This document shows positions 20,907 through 64,000 of a stretch of DNA of 64,000 bases, piece after piece. Made by a program: the position numbers and the translations under genes. Within the stretch, counting starts at the first letter, position 1; each line of letters opens with the position of its first letter. Source of the stretch: Patescibacteria group bacterium (lineage in GTDB: Bacteria > Patescibacteriota > Gracilibacteria > UBA1369 > PNNO01); contig JBHPIO010000004.1 of the NCBI GenBank assembly GCA_042568575.1, positions 1-64,000 of the forward strand, in the 5' to 3' direction. The notes below the pieces were generated by a model that was not told where the DNA came from, did not search any database, and was given only the letters and a program-made list of their open reading frames with translations.

Positions 20907-20999
20907 GGAGAGGTACTCAAGTGGCTGAAGAGGCGGGTTTGCTAAACCTGTAGGGTGACTTATGTTGCCGCGGGGGTTCGAATCCCCCCCTCTCCGCCA
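20907..20999 (+). tRNA. tRNA-Ser(GCT)
   Basis: GGAGAGG/CCTCTCC acceptor stem, GCT anticodon, long variable arm, GGTTCGAATCC T-arm, encoded CCA. Confidence 0.95.
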
Positions 21000-47448: not shown

Positions 47449-47884
47449 TGGTGGAGATGCCGGGAGTCGAACCCGGGTGCAAAAACTTAAAACGAAGACG
47501 TCTACAATCGTAGTTCATTTTTGATTACGCTTCTTTAGAATAAAAAATGAACAAAAGCTCTAAAGGAGCGGTCGGTTTAAGTCTTTTGCGTTACTAAAAC
47601 CGTATAGCAACACAGCAGCCTGATGTATGGCGCCCTAATAAAATATCAGACATCAGATATTAGGACGTGGGCTTAAAAGCCCAAGGTTGAGCTATGCAAC
47701 AGTTGCAGCTAATGTAGGCTTTCCTCCGAAGAGTGAAGCGTAAAGAGCTTTCATACCGTTTGCTACTCGTTCTTTAGATTCAGCATCTAAAATGCGCTGG
47801 ACGGATATGCGGGGAGACAGCGCGATCCCCGGATTGCAATCAAACATTTTAAAAATAGTTTCTGTCGAATACCAATACATCCCC
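47449..47884 (-). ncRNA. ssrA: tmRNA
   Basis: 5' GGGGATGTATTGGTATTCGAC; 3' CCCGGGTTCGACTCCCGGCATCTCCACCA; acceptor stem with G3.U pair; internal tag frame ending LAATVA*. Confidence 0.93.
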
Positions 47885-56193: not shown

Positions 56194-56283
56194 TGGCGGA
56201 GAGGAGGGGATTCGAACCCCTGGTACGATTTCTCGCACACTCGCGTTCCAGGCGAGCCCGTTCGACCACTCTGGCACCTCTCC
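56194..56283 (-). tRNA. tRNA-Ser(GGA)
   Basis: GGAGAGG/CCTCTCC acceptor, CTCGC-CT GGA AC-GCGAG anticodon arm, long variable arm, CCA. Confidence 0.95.
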
Positions 56284-56332: not shown

Positions 56333-56965
56333 ATGACTTCATTTGGTGACTTAATATATTTTCTCGTAGCGCTGATAGTAGCGATTTCTGTACATGAGGC
56401 GGCACATGCTTTTGTCGCATATAAACTCGGTGATCCAACGGCAAAGCATCAAGGAAGGCTTACTTTAAACCCTTTAAAGCACCTAGATCCACTTGGAACT
56501 TTGATGATTTTCATTGCAAGATTTGGCTGGGGAAAACCAGTTCCTGTAAATCCATACAACTTCAAAAATCCGGTTCGCGACTCGGCAATAGTTTCTTTGG
56601 CAGGGCCGATGTCTAACTTTGCAGTGGCGCTAATATGCTCAATCCCCCTTAAATATTTTCCGGAAGTAATACCAGTAGAAGGGCTCAACCTTCTGTGGAT
56701 AACACTCAATTTAAACATCCTACTTGGAGTATTTAACTTACTTCCATTTCCTCCGCTAGACGGTTCAAAAATCTTCGCAGTCTTTGTTCCCAAAAAGCAC
56801 CAGGAAGGATATTTTCGCTTTCTCAAAAGAGCGCAACCATACTTTTTCGCCTTTATCTTAATAGATCTTTTCTTGTTAAGGCGTTACCTTGGTTTTTCGA
56901 TTTTGTGGAAAGTGCTTGGCACGCTCTTCGACGCCGTGAGCGTGTTGATCTTTTTAGGTGGCTAA
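56333..56965 (+). CDS. site-2 protease (M50) family
   Basis: HEAAH, GD.TAK..GRLTLNP..HLD, AGP.SN, FNLLPFPPLDG. Confidence 0.93.
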   Translation: MTSFGDLIYFLVALIVAISVHEAAHAFVAYKLGDPTAKHQGRLTLNPLKHLDPLGTLMIFIARFGWGKPVPVNPYNFKNPVRDSAIVSLAGPMSNFAVALICSIPLKYFPEVIPVEGLNLLWITLNLNILLGVFNLLPFPPLDGSKIFAVFVPKKHQEGYFRFLKRAQPYFFAFILIDLFLLRRYLGFSILWKVLGTLFDAVSVLIFLGG

Positions 56966-56980
56966 AAAGAGTACCGGGCA

Positions 56981-59900
56981 CTACTTTTTCTTCCCTTTCG
57001 CTTTTCGCTTAAGGTAGATTCCAGTAAAGATTAGTCCGATACCAACGATGAAGATTAGAAGCCATACGTATCCTGGGAAGATTAGTTCTTCGCCAAGAGC
57101 GATTCCGTGTAGAACTTGAGCAAGTGGTTCTTTAACTACGAAGTTTACGACAACTAGTTTACTCATCGCTCCGTCGGAAGGACGAACCGCGTAAACTGAA
57201 ACTTTGTGTTCACCTTTACCTAGAGACTTAGGAGCTTGTAGTCGGAACTCACCAGTAGTAAGATCAGATACGATTCCAGAAGCACCAATCACACTTTCCC
57301 AGATTCCAGACACTTCATAGTTTGGACCAGTCTTACCAAGAAGCATTGGCTGGTCGTCTTTAATTATAACCTCAAGTCCTTCAAGAACGATTTCGTCTGT
57401 AATAGTTTCTGTAGAAAGTCTTTCCGGCTTTGGCTCTTGAACGCTTAGTGAAGAATCAAGCGATACAGAGATTAGCGGTGATTCAAGAACCTGTCTATTG
57501 TCAGGGTCAAGCATCTTCGCAAGAACGTAGAATTCACCATCCAGAAGCTCTTCTTCAACCTGTAGAGTGAAGACGTTGTTGTCGTCTACAGCAGTTGTTC
57601 CAATAAGCACTTCGTGACCAAATTCATTTCTTAAGTAGATTTTAATTTCAGCACCAGGTATTGAACCAAATCCTTGGAAGAACGGTTTAAGCTCAGTAAG
57701 GATTGTTCCGTCTTTAATATTAGTGAATCGAACACCTGCATCATTAAGGTTTGTATCTGCATTCGGATCGGTTCTATATACAAGCACTTCTTCTCCATCC
57801 AATAATCCATCACCATCGGTGTCAGGGTTTGTAGGGTCTGTGTTGTGTCTGTATTCAAGTAGGTTTGAAAGACCATCGCCATCGAAGTCATCAGAACCAT
57901 TTTGAGTGCTTATTCCATATTGAAGTTCCCAAGCATCGTCAATTCCATTTCCATTTGCATCTTGTGGGAAATCAGCAGCATCTGTTGGGTCGCTACCAAG
58001 GGCAATTTCAACTCCGTCTGTAAAGCTATCACCATCAGTATCAGATTTTGTAGGATCTGTACCATATGTATTTACCTCATCACCATCGCTAATATTATCG
58101 TAATCAGTATCAGTTAATAAAGGATTAGAATTATAAAGGGTCAGCTCATCACCATCGTTAAGATCATCGTTGTCGGTATCTTCAGATTCTGGATTAGTTA
58201 AGAAGATGAAGCTTTCATCTCTATCTATAATTGTATCGTTATCAGTATCTTCAAATCCTGTGTCGCCAAGGTTTTTGTAATACGCATAGTATTCAGCCAT
58301 AGTATTGTTTAACCACGTAGGGTTACAAACCTCAGCAGGCCTTTGTTTAACAGCCGGATCACAAGCCAGCACACCAATTTCGCATGCTAAATTATAATAC
58401 GGAGGTTCCCACCATTCGTTTAGATCTGCTGCACTCTTAGCTACATTATCAAGATTTTGTTCTCCACCAATTTTTGCCACGTATTCATCGTAATATTCCC
58501 ATTCTTGACCAAGCACAGACCAGTTCAACATTTTAATTACTTCTCTACGACGAGTGTTTTGATTTGGTTTAAATGGACTTCCTGCTTCTTCATAATAACC
58601 TTGCACCATTCTTGAACGAGTCGCGAACAAAATTCCGTCTTCATGATTTTGAGAAACAGCAGCTTCACCTTCTAAAAGAGGGCCGCTTGTTGTTGTAAAC
58701 ACATCGGGATAATAACTGCTTGAGTTTGCATTGTGACTTGAGTGAATCTTAAATGGAAGCATACAGTTGTCCCAATTTTCTAGACAAGCCTTGTCTTTTG
58801 CTGCAAATCTTTCTTCTAATTCAAATTTATCAATTATTGACGCAACAACTTCTTTACGAGTACATCCTGGAATGGGTTCTTCTGGAATTTCTGCTGCTTC
58901 GTGAAGTTCTACAACCTCTTCTTCTTCTTCGTATACACATTCAGGACATGGCTCTGGCTCAGGACATTCAAGTGGTTCCGCCGGAGGTGTAGGCTCTGTT
59001 GGTTCAGATGGTGGAGCTTCCCATAAACATAAAGAACTACATCCATCGCCGTCGGTAGTATTTCCGTCATCACATTGTTCACCAACGCTATATGTTGGGA
59101 TTCCATCTCCACAAACAGGGTCTGGTGGCGGTGGCTCATAAGTTCTAAAGCTACCATTTCGAGTAGTACAATTTGGTCCAGGGTTTGTGTTAGCATCACA
59201 AATAGTTACTCTAACTGAAACATTTTCTCCTTCTGCAAAATTTGCCACAGGATCTGTTTCTACTCTATAAACACCGCTTGATTCATCTACTGTTGTTTGA
59301 GATGAAGTGTTTGTGTACCCAACGCCTTTAATTGTATAAGTTAAACTGTTGATATCAACTCCCGCACGATCGTCTGTTAGAGAGAAAACAACGTTTGTAT
59401 CTACTGGATTTCCTCCTGATCCGTTTGGAGGGAGAATAAAGTTAACTGTTGGAGGAGTTGTATCTGGATTACAGAAACCAACACCATCAACCTCTTTGTT
59501 ATATCTTTCATTAATTGAGAAAGTTTTGTTTGATGTAGAAGTAAGAATGTCTGTAAGAGTAGCTGCATCCACTATTAGATTGTCATTTGGGGCAGTTCCA
59601 AAAGTTAAAGTCATTCCTGTTTCTCCCATTTTTGGCTCAAGATCGATTGTTCCAAATGTTCCAATGCCGGTAAATCCTCCGGTTCCTCCAAAACGCGATC
59701 CGCTAAGCTGGAGCATCGTTCCAATAATATTATTAAAAGTTTCCATTGGAAGCGGAGATCCTACAGACATGCTATTGAAGGTAATTTCGCTACTATTAAA
59801 ATTAATTGTTGTATCCGCAGCAAAAACACCTTTGCCTTCCGTATCCATCATAATTTCAACAGTTCCGTCGCAACCTTCAATTAGACCACTGTTGTCCTTA

Positions 59901-60007
59901 AAGTACAAAGTAGCTGCTAAAGCCTCTGGCATAATCATAGTAAATCCCATGATTAAGAACAGGAGGTGCGCGCTAATACGTTTTGTGAGGGATATATTTG
60001 ATTTCAT
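56981..60007 (-). CDS. membrane-anchored surface scaffold: cohesin-like, Ig-like, Cys-rich (DUF4215-like), SLH-like and Ca-binding DTDxD repeat regions
   Basis: Signal peptide; ATLYF..TVEIMMDT..AAD..INF..GTFGTI cohesin pattern; CGDG..EQCDDGN..DGDGCS; DTDGDG..DG.E repeats; C-terminal TM plus KRKAKGKKK. Confidence 0.8.
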   Translation of the reverse strand: MKSNISLTKRISAHLLFLIMGFTMIMPEALAATLYFKDNSGLIEGCDGTVEIMMDTEGKGVFAADTTINFNSSEITFNSMSVGSPLPMETFNNIIGTMLQLSGSRFGGTGGFTGIGTFGTIDLEPKMGETGMTLTFGTAPNDNLIVDAATLTDILTSTSNKTFSINERYNKEVDGVGFCNPDTTPPTVNFILPPNGSGGNPVDTNVVFSLTDDRAGVDINSLTYTIKGVGYTNTSSQTTVDESSGVYRVETDPVANFAEGENVSVRVTICDANTNPGPNCTTRNGSFRTYEPPPPDPVCGDGIPTYSVGEQCDDGNTTDGDGCSSLCLWEAPPSEPTEPTPPAEPLECPEPEPCPECVYEEEEEVVELHEAAEIPEEPIPGCTRKEVVASIIDKFELEERFAAKDKACLENWDNCMLPFKIHSSHNANSSSYYPDVFTTTSGPLLEGEAAVSQNHEDGILFATRSRMVQGYYEEAGSPFKPNQNTRRREVIKMLNWSVLGQEWEYYDEYVAKIGGEQNLDNVAKSAADLNEWWEPPYYNLACEIGVLACDPAVKQRPAEVCNPTWLNNTMAEYYAYYKNLGDTGFEDTDNDTIIDRDESFIFLTNPESEDTDNDDLNDGDELTLYNSNPLLTDTDYDNISDGDEVNTYGTDPTKSDTDGDSFTDGVEIALGSDPTDAADFPQDANGNGIDDAWELQYGISTQNGSDDFDGDGLSNLLEYRHNTDPTNPDTDGDGLLDGEEVLVYRTDPNADTNLNDAGVRFTNIKDGTILTELKPFFQGFGSIPGAEIKIYLRNEFGHEVLIGTTAVDDNNVFTLQVEEELLDGEFYVLAKMLDPDNRQVLESPLISVSLDSSLSVQEPKPERLSTETITDEIVLEGLEVIIKDDQPMLLGKTGPNYEVSGIWESVIGASGIVSDLTTGEFRLQAPKSLGKGEHKVSVYAVRPSDGAMSKLVVVNFVVKEPLAQVLHGIALGEELIFPGYVWLLIFIVGIGLIFTGIYLKRKAKGKKK

Positions 60008-60052
60008 TTTTATTTTAATTTGTCTAAATATTATATCATAAAACGACGGCTT

Positions 60053-61597
60053 TTAAAAGGCCTGAGAGGCAAAATATTCACCTTCTTCTCGGTAGTTCCA
60101 AAGTAGCACTGCAATATCGAGAGCATTTACGATTTCTTCTTTTGTTAAATCGCTAACATTTGTACCTTCTTCTCGGTATGAATTAAGCATTCTTGCTATG
60201 TCCAAGGCGTTTACGTAGTTGTCATCATATATATCACCTGCTGTTAATTCGAAGACGTCAGCAAATGTGAAGTCGAGTTCTACACGCTCTGTTGTTTCAA
60301 GAATTATCACATCCCTAACGATTTTTGTATTATGAGCCTCACCATTTAGGGCGATATCGTAAGTTCCCGTCATCAATTCTCTTTGGTGCTCCTTAAGACC
60401 ATATGAATCTAACGTGATAAGGTCTGTTTCTAGAGTTCCGGCACCATGTTTAAAAAAAGTTAACTGAGAATTAAGTCCTAAATTTGGTGTAGAATCGATA
60501 ATTGTACGATATTCAGGTTTTCCTTTAATATCGAAAATAACCTCTACAAGAAGTTCTTCTTCACATAAAGAGCTACAACCATCGCCGTCAATTAAGTTTC
60601 CGTCGTCACATGCTTCGCCAGCATCAAGGATTCCGTCTCCACATTCAGGAAGCTCTTCTTCACAAGCAGCACTACATCCGTCGCCGTTTATGGTGTTTCC
60701 GTCATCACATTCCTCTCCAGGCTCTCTCAAGTTATTTCCGCATACTGGATCTGTGCCACCGCCACCTCCAGCTGGGGGAGGGTCAGGGTCGCCGCCACCT
60801 CCGGTATCTTCAAACTGAGTTGAGAACACAACGTCTGAATACGGACTTAATCCTTCGTTATTTAATGGATCCGGATCGTTATCCTGACTTTGAACGTCAT
60901 AAAAATATGTTTCGCCTATAGTTAGGCTATTAAAAGTATGTGAATAAGTTTGTGCAGGATTGCTGCAGTCATTCCATCCGCTTTCTGCAACTGTTGCTGC
61001 TGCTGGATCTAATGCAAGGTTTTCAAGGCTTGCTCGCACGTTACAAGTTAGGTTTATTGCATCTACTCCGTCTACTACCCCGTTGTTGTCAAAGAAGATC
61101 GTATTACTAGTTCCTTCGGTGACACCAGGTTCTGCTTGAATGTTTGGTGCGGGAAGGTTTGAGGAAGGGGTGCAGGTGGTAACTACTCCTGAGCTCTGCA
61201 AAACTCCTGCTTCTGAAGTGAGGGTGAAAATATAGGTCCAACCAATAACAAGATCGGTTATATTTGTATTAGGAGGATAAAATGAAATATCATCAGGCGT
61301 AGTGGATCCTGGAAAAGGATTAAGATCTCTTAGCGTCAAACTTACACCAGGCCCTTGAGGACCGTCGATAACTAGCGCTTGATTATCTATATTTGGGGTA
61401 ACACTAGTTGTCCAGTTTAAACCACATTCCCCCGACCCTCCTCCTATATCTGTAGCGACGAAACCCGTCGCATCTGCAGGGAGTACGGTTACTGAAACTG
61501 GAACATCGCCAACGTCTGCTTTAACTTGCAAAGCAGGCCCCAAAACGAAGGACAAAACTATTATAATGGCAATTTCGCACAAAACCCGTTTAAACAT
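60053..61597 (-). CDS. secreted protein with FN3-like and Cys-rich repeats and a C-terminal dockerin-like domain
   Basis: Signal peptide, GDVPVSVTV, two CDDGN..DGDGCS repeats, duplicated D..D..VNALDIA motif. Confidence 0.8.
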
Positions 61598-61680
61598 ATT
61601 TTATTTTGTTTTTATTCTCTATCTCTTATATTTTACAACATTTTGAGGGAAATATCAACCCTCTTTGGCCTATATTTCAA

Positions 61681-61710
61681 TAAAAGCCAGAAGTTAATCT
61701 CTGGCTTTTA
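61681..61710 (-). terminator. intra-operon hairpin/terminator
   Basis: TAAAAGCCAGA/TCTGGCTTTTA. Confidence 0.65.
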
Positions 61711-61729
61711 TCTCTAAATTTGTACTAAT

Positions 61730-63061
61730 TTACTCCTCCATTTTTTCTAATTTCTTTTTCATTTTCGCGTATTTCGAAGCTCCCTTGTAAATACCAAAAA
61801 TCACAAGACCCAAGATAATAACGATGATTATTAATTGCCACCAACTAATTACCCAAAATGCAATACTCTGTGTTGTAGAACTTGCACCGTCATTAAATGT
61901 GAAAGTTAAATCCGCAGAATAATAACCTAGGGCAAGTCCAGAATCCCAGACTGCTCTTTCTCCAAGGTTCATTGATCCTGCTGGCAAAAGCTTGTATCCG
62001 TCTGGATAAAGATTTACTGTTTCTTTCGGCATACCGAAGGCATTTTTGATCTCGATTGTTGCGCTTCCTGAAATCAAATTCGAACTATTGTTTATAAGGT
62101 TTCCTTCAAATTCTACCGGTAAGCTGGAATGGAATGACGAAGTGCTAAAATTCTCAATTATTACTTCTTCTGTAATTTCAAACTCTGCTTCTTCTTCGAA
62201 ATTAGTAGTTTCGCCATTGACAGCATAATAGGCTGCTAATTTAGCTTTATATTTGCCTGGTTTAATATTAAGACCACCAACTTTAGTTTTTATCTCTTTC
62301 GATATATTTGGATAGGCAGAAGACAGAGACGGGTTGAAAGGAACAACATCTTTAAAGCCTTTCGTTATAGTCTCTTCACCTACTTCCTCAGTAATTCTTA
62401 TGATGTTTTCAACTTGTTCGTCGTTCTCATCATAAATTGTAATATTCCCCATAGGGGCTATAGCTATATTTCCTTCATTTGTAAATTTGGCTACAAATGA
62501 CAAAACCCCGTTTTTCAACAACTCTTCATCTGCAAAAAACTCTTCTAATTCAAGAGAAGCATTTACATCTCCTAAAACATTCACTTCAACAAGAAGAAAC
62601 ACTCTTCCCGAAACGCCAACACCAACGGGTTCACCTGTATCTGTCGTTGGAACATGTTTTGTCAAAGACACTGCGGCCAGGTGTGTTCCGGGTGATGCGT
62701 CTGCAGGGATATCAAAGCCCATCGTAACCTCTATTTGATCATTGGCTGGAACAGAAAGCGGCAAGGTTGCTCCAATTTTTACCCAAGATTCTGCACTGTA
62801 AGGAGGCTTAGGATCCTCAGGAGCTAGGAAAGTTTGATTCCCATCTTCTCTAAGAATATAACTCATTGGCACAAAATCGTACTTTTCCGGCTTTTCAGTC
62901 GGGTTGATTACGTTGATAGTTCTCTCTATAGTTTCTCCTGGATTACCCTCTACCACAACTTTTCCTGGCATTAAACCAAGAGCTGCAGCACTATTTACTA
63001 AAGTTACCCACAAAATAATTGGGAGGGCTACAACTAACATTTTTTGAAAAACTTTCATCAT
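61730..63061 (-). CDS. DUF916/PapD-like Ig-fold protein with C-terminal membrane anchor
   Basis: Signal peptide; GLMP...NPGET....I.V.N, SW, IPADASPG.H.A, NEGN...P.G.I, GKYKA; C-terminal TM. Confidence 0.75.
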   Translation of the reverse strand: MMKVFQKMLVVALPIILWVTLVNSAAALGLMPGKVVVEGNPGETIERTINVINPTEKPEKYDFVPMSYILREDGNQTFLAPEDPKPPYSAESWVKIGATLPLSVPANDQIEVTMGFDIPADASPGTHLAAVSLTKHVPTTDTGEPVGVGVSGRVFLLVEVNVLGDVNASLELEEFFADEELLKNGVLSFVAKFTNEGNIAIAPMGNITIYDENDEQVENIIRITEEVGEETITKGFKDVVPFNPSLSSAYPNISKEIKTKVGGLNIKPGKYKAKLAAYYAVNGETTNFEEEAEFEITEEVIIENFSTSSFHSSLPVEFEGNLINNSSNLISGSATIEIKNAFGMPKETVNLYPDGYKLLPAGSMNLGERAVWDSGLALGYYSADLTFTFNDGASSTTQSIAFWVISWWQLIIIVIILGLVIFGIYKGASKYAKMKKKLEKMEE

Positions 63062-63126
63062 TTTCGGCAGGTTAAATTATGTAATTCACAACTGATATTA
63101 TACCTAACTCTATTACAAAAATCCAT

Positions 63127-63165
63127 AAAAAAACAAGGGCGGCATATAGAGCTACCCTTGTTTTT
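63127..63165 (-). terminator. terminator/stabilising hairpin after the pilin-like gene
   Basis: AAAAACAAGGG/CCCTTGTTTTT hairpin with T tract on the minus strand. Confidence 0.7.
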
Positions 63166-63182
63166 AATTTAGATTCAAAAGA

Positions 63183-63782
63183 CTATGATCCAACGATCAA
63201 GTTAAGAACCCAAGTATCAGAATATGCTTCAGAAACCTGATCAGTATTAGTTGATACAGCCATACCTAATGTGAAATTGTCTAAGTCGTTTACATTAGTT
63301 TCGTCATCAATTGGACGACCAGTTTCAGTTGCTTGTGCTGCACAAACAGAAGTTGTACCAGTACAAGTAGCAACTGTATCACCAGCAGCAGTACTCATGT
63401 AGTATCCTACTTCAGCAGTTCCAGCAGCTGGATCTTGTCCAGTAAATACTGATCCTGGGAAATCGTCTACACCTTCAACAAAGTCAGTTGGACCGGCAAT
63501 ACAACCAGTTTGTGTACAACCTTCAGTACCATCATTGGTATCTGTTACGTAAACATCATGAGTACCATTAGCACTTACGATGAAGTTACAAGATGCACTA
63601 GTTTCTGCGTTTGCTCCAAGAGAAGCAACGATAAGTCCACCTGGAGTATCACACGCATCCATGTCAAGGATAACACCTGCATCTACAGTTACTGAAACAG
63701 GAACGTCTCCTGTAGCAGCGAAAGCTACAGATGAGATAGCAACCATTGCAACAAGTGCACCTAAAGCGATAAGCTTTTTCAT
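63183..63782 (-). CDS. secreted pilin-like (Csu/SCPU/WxL-like) subunit
   Basis: Signal peptide (AFA), N-terminal beta strand GDVPVSVTV, paired Cys, C-terminal YSDTWVLNL strand. Confidence 0.65.
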   Translation of the reverse strand: MKKLIALGALVAMVAISSVAFAATGDVPVSVTVDAGVILDMDACDTPGGLIVASLGANAETSASCNFIVSANGTHDVYVTDTNDGTEGCTQTGCIAGPTDFVEGVDDFPGSVFTGQDPAAGTAEVGYYMSTAAGDTVATCTGTTSVCAAQATETGRPIDDETNVNDLDNFTLGMAVSTNTDQVSEAYSDTWVLNLIVGS

Positions 63783-63908
63783 TTTTGTTTTGGTTAATTA
63801 TAAAGCTTTACAATTATCCCCTTTCCCCCGTGTCCCTTTTGTTCCGCCTCGACCAGTACGGCAACATTATAGAAATTTAGTCGTATTTTTATTTTGTGTT
63901 CATGTAAT

Positions 63909-63937
63909 ATTATATAACATCGGGCAGACAAAGTCAA
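63909..63937 (-). promoter_or_regulatory. sigma70-type promoter of the surface operon
   Basis: TTGACT-17 nt-TATAAT, about 120 nt upstream of the pilin-like start. Confidence 0.7.
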
Positions 63938-64000
63938 ACATTAAATTTTCTTTGATTTGCCCTTTTTACTGCCCCTTTTTGGCTTATACCACCAAAAATG

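Follow-up and report, generated by a model that had tools for sequence, protein, structure and literature searches.

Why should two secreted proteins that are otherwise dissimilar carry the same nine residues at the start of their predicted mature chains? The question is raised by a locus near the end of the stretch of DNA analysed here (the window: 64,000 nucleotides (nt) of contig JBHPIO010000004.1), which is the first 64 kb of a 90.5-kb contig in a Patescibacteria genome of 31 contigs and 1,203,139 bases, with a guanine-plus-cytosine content of 0.34-0.42 and a completeness rating of 81.8%. In this locus the peptide GDVPVSVTV follows the predicted signal peptide of a protein of 199 amino acids (aa) and of one of 514 aa alike. 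We consider it probable that the locus is a distant relative of the Enterococcus Elr/WxL pilus, and that the shared strand is a donor strand for one pilin groove. The donor-strand fibre principle has so far been described only in Gram-positive and Gram-negative bacteria; the system would be of a known kind, in a phylum where it has not been reported before (Peregrinibacteria-like, within the candidate phyla radiation (CPR), also called Patescibacteria). The genes and segments on which the argument turns are these:

63183 to 63782, minus strand: 199-aa secreted protein, candidate major pilin (open reading frame, ORF)
63675 to 63716, minus strand: proposed donor strand of the 199-aa protein, residues 23-36 (shared 27 nt at 63684-63710)
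61730 to 63061, minus strand: 443-aa WxLIP/DUF916-like membrane-anchored chaperone candidate (profile, AlphaFold2 (AF2) model, Foldseek)
60053 to 61597, minus strand: 514-aa donor-only subunit candidate (ORF, Pfam)
61481 to 61516, minus strand: N-terminal strand of the 514-aa protein, residues 28-39 (shared 27 nt at 61484-61510)

The initial annotation had reported an identical peptide encoded with four synonymous third-position differences, and both reverse-complement readings agree: 63684-63710 reads GGA GAC GTT CCT GTT TCA GTA ACT GTA and 61484-61510 reads GGC GAT GTT CCA GTT TCA GTA ACC GTA, each translating to GDVPVSVTV, with the four differences at positions 3, 6, 12 and 24 of the 27-nt codings, all in third codon positions and all synonymous. 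That similarity ends outside the motif was likewise borne out, as the 30-nt flanks of the two codings are identical at 9 of 30 positions on each side, a background level, and BLASTP of the 199-aa against the 514-aa protein returns a single 12-residue match (10/12 identical, residues 22-33 against 27-38) with an expectation value (E) of 0.028 for this one comparison, all other segments having E of at least 0.6. The strand would start two residues past cleavage in both proteins, between AFA and AT in the 199-aa chain and between VKA and DV in the 514-aa chain; the annotation's placing of it there fits the AxA rule and the end of signal-peptide conservation in alignments, by which the sites were set, and stands as a prediction. 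Across genomes the signal peptide of the small protein (MKKLxALxALVAMVAxSSVAxA; window 63717-63782, minus strand) is far more conserved than the mature protein, nine of the ten invariant columns of the alignment falling within it. In the six-frame translation of the genome (stop-to-stop frames of at least 40 aa) the loose pattern G[DENST]V.V.V.V has no third occurrence. Some common 9-mer is found in 93 pairs of frames of at least 100 aa, nearly all of them in recognisable domains such as P-loops and DUF4215. Chance as the origin of the shared strand is rejected on the basis of this pattern search, the BLASTP comparison, the tally of 9-mer pairs, and the co-variation described below.

If both strands fit the same groove, they would change together between species, and co-variation of the two N-peptides within genomes across orthologous operons was the check that the initial annotation had set beforehand. 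The 14 residues past the cleavage site of the small protein were set against the 12 that precede P.DAT, the conserved anchor in the 514-like protein, in 13 operons, from 10 genomes of the same family and loci L052, L063 and L065. These three gave the only new complete operons from a related-locus search with the 514-like C-terminal alignment, which found 12 loci on genome contigs and 4 on metagenome contigs; L059, L064 and L066 are without the N-terminal genes, and the L047 genome was left out of the pair counts as its small gene is missing at a contig end. The strands do co-vary. Within-genome similarity sums to 334 against 226.5 ± 19.0 when partners are shuffled (2 of 200,000 shuffles reach it), identities number 68 against 48.1 ± 3.9 (0 of 200,000), and the first 10 genomes alone score 281 against 182 ± 18 (0 of 200,000). 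At offsets chosen to maximise similarity, one of them set by eye, the central strand residue is equal in both proteins in 10 of 13 genomes (118 of 200,000 shuffles reach that), the pair being V/V here, T/T in a genome of the same genus, A/A in another genus and G/G seven times; at such offsets the strands are amphipathic, with hydrophobic residues in 85 of 104 cells at odd positions and 11 of 104 at even positions.

The same 13 operons bear on a different origin for the identity, namely that DNA copying, whether by local gene conversion or a small duplication, left it behind and that no binding function is shared. Five of the nine codons are identical in the two genes, including the four valine codons in the order GTT, GTT, GTA, GTA, and the two genes share a strand at a distance of 2.2 kb, as copying would have it. 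However, the flanks are unrelated, and codon sharing at the 68 identical residues is at expectation (27 with the same codon against 23.3 ± 3.9 expected), while three loci show switches between the AGY and TCN families of serine codons, which are impossible by copying. The level of codon sharing and the serine switches thus indicate selection on the peptide and not copying of DNA. Similarity at the protein level is also kept in lineages whose DNA differs, and a conversion tract repeatedly covering the strand alone would itself imply selection. Gene conversion as the main cause is rejected on the codon statistics and the unrelated flanks, and we regard a copying origin of any kind as very improbable.

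What the strands would fit is suggested by a recently described pilus. Enterococcus WxL proteins build a pilus by donor-strand exchange, according to the portions of a preprint drawn on here (Sleutel et al., bioRxiv 10.64898/2026.10.17.759780). As set out there, the Elr parts in Enterococcus faecalis are the pilin ElrD, the DUF916/DUF3324 membrane chaperone ElrE, the terminator ElrB and the tip protein ElrA; mature residues 1-15 of ElrD are donated, antiparallel to the last strand of the acceptor, and the donor-only terminator ElrB has an N-terminus on the pilin donor pattern as well as an LPxTG motif (10.64898/2026.10.17.759780). In those portions the system is reported in Bacillota only, from a survey that used Pfam gathering thresholds and one RefSeq proteome per genus (10.64898/2026.10.17.759780).

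Modelling of the peptide in a groove, a second check proposed by the initial annotation, gave a result in keeping with such an arrangement. For a complex that pairs the 199-aa protein (residues 35-199) with the 514-aa protein (residues 28-146), the predicted interface score (ipSAE) is 0.70 (runs 0.63, 0.71 and 0.70), whereas the best of three controls scores 0.00; of 80 solved complexes 58 attain the mark used for this score, as do 2 of 110 mismatched pairs. At least 92% of contacts recur between runs, and the predicted local distance difference test (pLDDT) of the partner is at least 87. Residues 28-41 of the 514-aa protein sit in the model between pilin residues 180-195, to which they are antiparallel, and residues 48-58; the strand runs antiparallel to residues 184-191 and alongside 50-55, with contacts 191-32, 187-36 and 184-38. 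The model supports binding of the 514-aa strand in a groove of the pilin, and since the core nine residues are identical, the same groove geometry is implied for the pilin's own strand.

Co-variation alone is silent on which surface the strands fit, so the strand might instead be a recognition tag for a third component, whether the 443-aa chaperone-like protein, signal peptidase or a sorting factor. Its position directly at the predicted cleavage site in both proteins would suit a tag, as would the presence of a 443-aa-type gene between the two genes in 13 of 13 operons. Conserved machinery should, however, mean a conserved tag, yet the strand is the most variable part of the 514-like proteins. 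In the Elr system, as far as the preprint text used here describes it, the chaperone binds the pilin groove and the N-strand stays free (10.64898/2026.10.17.759780). In the complex model, moreover, it is the 199-aa protein that receives the strand, the controls scoring 0.00, and no dedicated peptidase gene is present among the ORFs read at the locus. A recognition tag therefore seems unlikely to us. The claim of the initial annotation that purifying selection acts on a shared binding peptide gains from the co-variation, the synonymous differences and the groove model, and holds as far as it can be computed.

The proposed donor-strand fibre needs a pilin, and the 199-aa protein is likely to be one. 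It consists of a signal peptide (1-22), the donor strand (about 23-36) and a body with six cysteines that ends in ...AYSDTWVLNLIVGS. Its relatives are few: no Pfam family matches it at E of 1 or below, Peptidase_M73 (the TasA family) included; a word-index homologue search recovered the protein alone (1 of 529 candidates); a HMMER scan of 1.84 billion representatives found two distant relatives besides itself; and among 40 related genomes 7 have weak relatives. Its AF2 monomer, a poor model, leaves residues 25-35 without structure. As leads only, the nearest family-bearing cluster in the Atlas by features is WxL (score 0.93), and the Atlas structure neighbours, for a model with pLDDT of 0.51, include SCPU, DUF4402 and Fimbrial clusters.

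The 443-aa protein is homologous to WxLIP and has a pilus-chaperone-like fold by profile and model comparison, and chaperone action would follow by analogy with ElrE. Its AF2 model (pLDDT 81) shows three beta-sandwich domains after a signal peptide and a C-terminal transmembrane helix (407-442); hydrophobic 19-mers in the C-terminus begin at residues 397-413, as expected of a membrane tether. A profile of six orthologues matches EfmWxLIP1 (9i1y_A) at E of 2.2e-6 over query positions 42-184, and Foldseek places the model with 9i25_C (E of 9.7e-11), 9i1y_A and the pilus chaperones CfaA and DraB, the CfaA matches (6k73_B, 4y2o_A, 4ncd) having a template-modelling (TM) score by target of 0.56-0.57; generic Ig-like multidomain proteins rank as high or higher. 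The E. faecium WxLIP structures (9i1y, and 9i25, 'WxLIP bound to long WxL') are thus the best specific sequence and fold matches of the family, from which it differs in having only 15% identity in the structural alignment (TM by target 0.43-0.45) and in its greater length, with three beta-sandwich domains before the membrane helix. In a six-frame search of the genome, PF06030 matches only the three chaperone-like genes of the locus (16.8, 14.3 and 11.1 bits). A search for related loci with the single 443-aa protein found none. Positions 35-152 of the family profile also weakly match Ruminococcus scaffoldin cohesin modules (5m2o_A, E of 0.0015), which may be a fold-level likeness only.

The 514-aa protein has the strand and is otherwise built differently. 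Its signal peptide (1-27) and N-strand (28-39) are followed by a conserved P.DAT domain, further conserved domains, two DUF4215/Cys-rich repeats, a beta module and, at the C-terminus, a dockerin-like segment; overall identity among orthologues is 44-75%, yet the N-strand varies. Beyond the strand, BLASTP finds no similarity to the 199-aa pilin candidate, so the protein would be able to plug a last free groove but not be extended. Apart from the signal peptide it has no transmembrane segment, and the 199-, 443-, 514- and 1008-aa proteins are all without an LPxTG-like motif; a sortase gene lies on contig C30. Two further features concern anchoring:

60056 to 60241, minus strand: C-terminal module of the 514-aa protein, dockerin-like, with two ...D.N..N.LD... 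repeats (about residues 453-514)
56981 to 60007, minus strand: 1008-aa membrane-anchored surface protein with Big_5, DUF4215, TSP3 repeats and a C-terminal transmembrane helix

On the 514-aa protein Pfam Dockerin_1 reaches 17.7 bits, below its cut-off of 22.9. A profile of the last 170 aa from 10 orthologues matches the X-dockerin of cellulosomal CipA (2b59_B) at E of 2.8e-4, and 13 of 13 chains listed at E of 1 or below bear dockerins; unlike cellulosomal cohesin-dockerin anchoring, no cohesin partner was identified at the locus. The N-terminus of the 1008-aa protein was rejected as a cohesin (PF00963): it has no Pfam match, an 11-orthologue profile finds nothing in the PDB at E of 1 or below, and hhalign against the genome's own cohesin protein gives a probability of 0.3%. 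That one cohesin-domain protein is on contig C2 and is without a membrane anchor. It is a 532-aa secreted protein (C2 17498-19096, or L084 745-2343, plus strand) with a Pfam cohesin score of 56.4 bits and a dockerin-like tail of its own, and the adjacent ORF, of 188 aa, looks cohesin-like by eye.

The initial annotation had called the 514-aa protein a PapH-like terminator or anchor. PapH, the terminator of the P pilus, is a pilin-fold subunit that works with the periplasmic PapD chaperone and an outer-membrane usher; its N-terminal extension occupies the groove of the last pilin and halts elongation at the end nearest the cell, as is proposed here for the end subunit. The Pap-type chaperone-usher framing does not hold, since neither the usher (PF00577) nor a PapD-like chaperone (PF00345, PapD_N) has a match at E of 1 or below in this 81.8%-complete genome. 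The donor-only architecture is that of ElrB, which is the better analogue because PapH is a pilin-fold subunit and the 514-aa protein shows no pilin similarity beyond the strand. What remains of the earlier proposal is the role itself, as terminator or anchor, which topology and analogy would assign to this protein.

The likeness to the Elr/WxL pilus, as the available portions of the preprint describe it, extends to a pilin that is small and secreted, a chaperone bearing a membrane helix at its C-terminus, an end subunit with the pilin's N-strand and without an acceptor domain, large upstream proteins with pilin-like C-termini, and a donor strand of about 14 residues at the mature N-terminus, here modelled antiparallel to the acceptor's last strand. 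The differences are also substantial. The related loci belong to Candidatus Peregrinibacteria, Candidatus Peribacteria and Patescibacteria group bacteria and not to Bacillota; the pilin here is without PF13731 signal and both chaperone modules are below Pfam cut-offs; the end subunit, unlike ElrB, is 514 aa long with a dockerin-like tail and no LPxTG; and the strand, unlike that of the described pilus, is hypervariable between species and co-varies in two proteins. TasA, archaeal threads, bundling pili and cannulae likewise use an N-terminal donor strand to complete a neighbour's beta-sandwich where there is no outer membrane. In the accounts available, however, they have no dedicated chaperone gene beside the subunit gene, unlike the locus here, and a donor-only partner with a co-varying strand is not described for such chaperone-free, TasA-type fibres.

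Several observations weigh against kinship with the Elr/WxL pilus and against the pairing of strand and groove. The AF2 monomer of the 199-aa protein is poor (pLDDT 48, from a shallow alignment of 12 rows). The WxL family PF13731 has no match in the whole genome at E of 10 or below, and none in the 199-aa protein at E of 1 or below; the pilin-family profile matches nothing among PDB sequences, WxL chains included, and hhalign of the pilin with CPR WxL-like neighbours aligns the last 27 columns only, with a probability of 13%. In the 443-aa protein PF06030 (WxLIP_PGBD) is sub-threshold at 14.3-16.8 bits against a cut-off of 27.3, and PF11797 (WxLIP_HBD) reaches 12.6 bits against 28.9. The ElrD consensus given in the preprint, [S/T]8-x-[G/A]10-x-[V/I]12-x-F14, is absent, including Phe14; the pattern here is V5-x-V7-x-[G/V/A/T]9-x-[VIL]11. 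The co-variation is uneven, with the own partner ranking first for 6 of 13 strands and that of the L052, L063 and L065 loci 9th, 7th and 2nd; related genomes are non-independent samples, and the choice of offsets favours agreement. Finally, the complex model may pass in part from the predictor's memory of solved donor-strand complexes.

With these points counted, the donor-strand pilus remains the probable explanation, and assembly could proceed as follows. Both proteins would be exported, and signal peptidase would leave the strand at the new N-terminus, as the AxA sites predict. The 199-aa pilin would then be an incomplete beta-sandwich, with a groove modelled between its C-terminal strand (180-195) and residues 48-58. 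By analogy with ElrE, the membrane-anchored 443-aa WxLIP-like protein may hold this groove and then be displaced by the next pilin's N-strand. The 514-aa protein would plug the last free groove and, because it cannot be extended, act as a donor-only end subunit like ElrB; the strand-in-groove model with its controls and the co-variation speak for the plugging, and the position at the base is the presumed one. Bound to fit one groove, the two strands would change in concert between species, in line with the co-variation computed here. More speculatively, attachment of the fibre to another surface protein may be provided by the dockerin-like tail that the 514-aa protein has instead of LPxTG.

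The strand could also be a donor strand while the 514-aa protein serves as an adaptor or payload on single 199-aa units, in a 1:1 heterodimer without a fibre, or sits elsewhere in an assembly of different polarity. That the 199-aa protein polymerises is itself presumed; with its size, its many domains and its adhesin-like modules the 514-aa protein is unlike the 13-kDa ElrB; the cohesin tests of the 1008-aa protein found no anchor partner for it; and the three chaperone-like paralogues and several pilin-like ends present at the locus allow more complex wiring. Against this, a subunit with a strand and without a groove fits only the groove-free end of a chain, which faces the cell in chaperone-usher and Elr pili. 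The 199-aa gene also has its own promoter-like site and 3' hairpin, as is often seen in major-subunit genes, although this point is weak. On balance we judge an adaptor or a differently placed subunit to be quite unlikely. The transcription signals concerned, with a second hairpin, are:

63909 to 63937, minus strand: promoter-like TTGACT-17-TATAAT upstream of the 199-aa gene (11/12 matches)
63123 to 63165, minus strand: terminator-like hairpin with U-run directly 3' of the 199-aa gene (folding)
61679 to 61712, minus strand: strong hairpin directly 3' of the 443-aa gene (folding)

The promoter-like site is the best match within 56500-64000, where the 16 such sites are not above the number in shuffled sequence (16.5 ± 3.8). 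The hairpin after the 199-aa gene folds at -23.7 kcal/mol (z-score -3.5) and that after the 443-aa gene at -23.6 kcal/mol (z-score -4.6), with 0 of 200 shuffles as good in either case; a consensus terminator scan missed both.

On the minus strand the gene order is two giant proteins, 618-aa and 357-aa chaperone-like proteins, and then the 199-aa, 443-aa chaperone-like, 514-aa and 1008-aa proteins. The operon of small protein, chaperone-like, 514-like and 1008-like genes recurs within the bacterial family; the chaperone-like gene is present in 11 of 13 genomes of the family (10 of 12 without the source genome), and in related loci the 514-like gene has a gene of the 1008-like kind downstream of it. 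Some loci (L015 4507-6001, L044 12387-13175, L063 8240-8548 and L065 8621-9466) have unrelated small genes inserted between these last two, among them nucleotidyltransferase/HEPN-like pairs and proteins of about 260-300 aa starting MPN.KI.V.G. Beyond the window, on contig C26, the 618-aa ORF (L002 5026-6882, minus strand) has four elements in one frame. These are a chaperone-like part and a membrane helix, together with a basic stretch and a second signal-like segment, ...IPSVAA followed after the apparent cleavage point by QDSDDISVNMTV..., which leads into a pilin-like domain with the end ...TFTLNTTP; either a fused chaperone-pilin or a missed internal start may account for this ORF. The giants (L002 6887-13051 and 13059-17999, both minus strand), of 2054 aa and more than 1622 aa, have pilin-like C-termini ending ...IITTNP, and the 2054-aa giant has an N-terminal strand-like segment, QDIVDIALTADVDTGC, similar to the N-strand in the second pilin-like set (D-I-x-V-x-M-T-V). 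Within a second set, the two giants could serve as adhesins, at the tip or inserted. Elsewhere the window holds a transfer-messenger RNA gene (47449-47884, minus strand; tag AESKERVANGMKALYASLFGGKPTLAATVA) and tRNA-Ser genes at 20907-20999 (plus strand) and 56194-56283 (minus strand).

How far might such systems extend? In a tally of 401 sampled Patescibacteria genomes, one of them unpublished and bearing on no conclusion here, PF06030 is found in 148 at E of 0.001 or below and in 92 above the Pfam cut-off. At six PF06030-positive loci that were read, 5 of 8 neighbouring proteins have sub-threshold WxL matches (13.7-23.7 bits, cut-off 25). In L085-L090, six genomes of other CPR families, the PF06030 genes are flanked by small secreted proteins and by proteins of 500-800 aa, and these neighbours have common C-terminal endings of the type ...Y.a.v..T[IV]. 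in their sequences. This arrangement suggests that chaperone-pilin-adhesin triads occur in many CPR lineages. A literature search found no link of WxL or DUF916 with Patescibacteria or the candidate phyla radiation. It is possible, although we put it forward only tentatively, that chaperone-guided donor-strand pili are widespread in CPR, that the strand is a fast-evolving, species-specific key, and that the fibre is held non-covalently by a dockerin-type module and not by sortase.

If this were true, the mechanism would extend past Bacillota, the sole phylum in the portions used here of the preprint of 17 October 2026 (10.64898/2026.10.17.759780). Co-evolution would maintain one key common to the pilin and the dockerin-tailed base subunit, preventing cross-assembly of the three chaperone/pilin sets of a locus. 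The natural co-variation of the strands is comparative evidence for specificity between strand and groove, and provides a ready set of matched and mismatched peptide-pilin pairs. CPR bacteria are tiny, mostly uncultured, and live attached to other cells, and to our knowledge their known surface fibres are type IV pili. A second class of CPR fibre, built by donor-strand exchange, would, if true, be a candidate attachment organelle.

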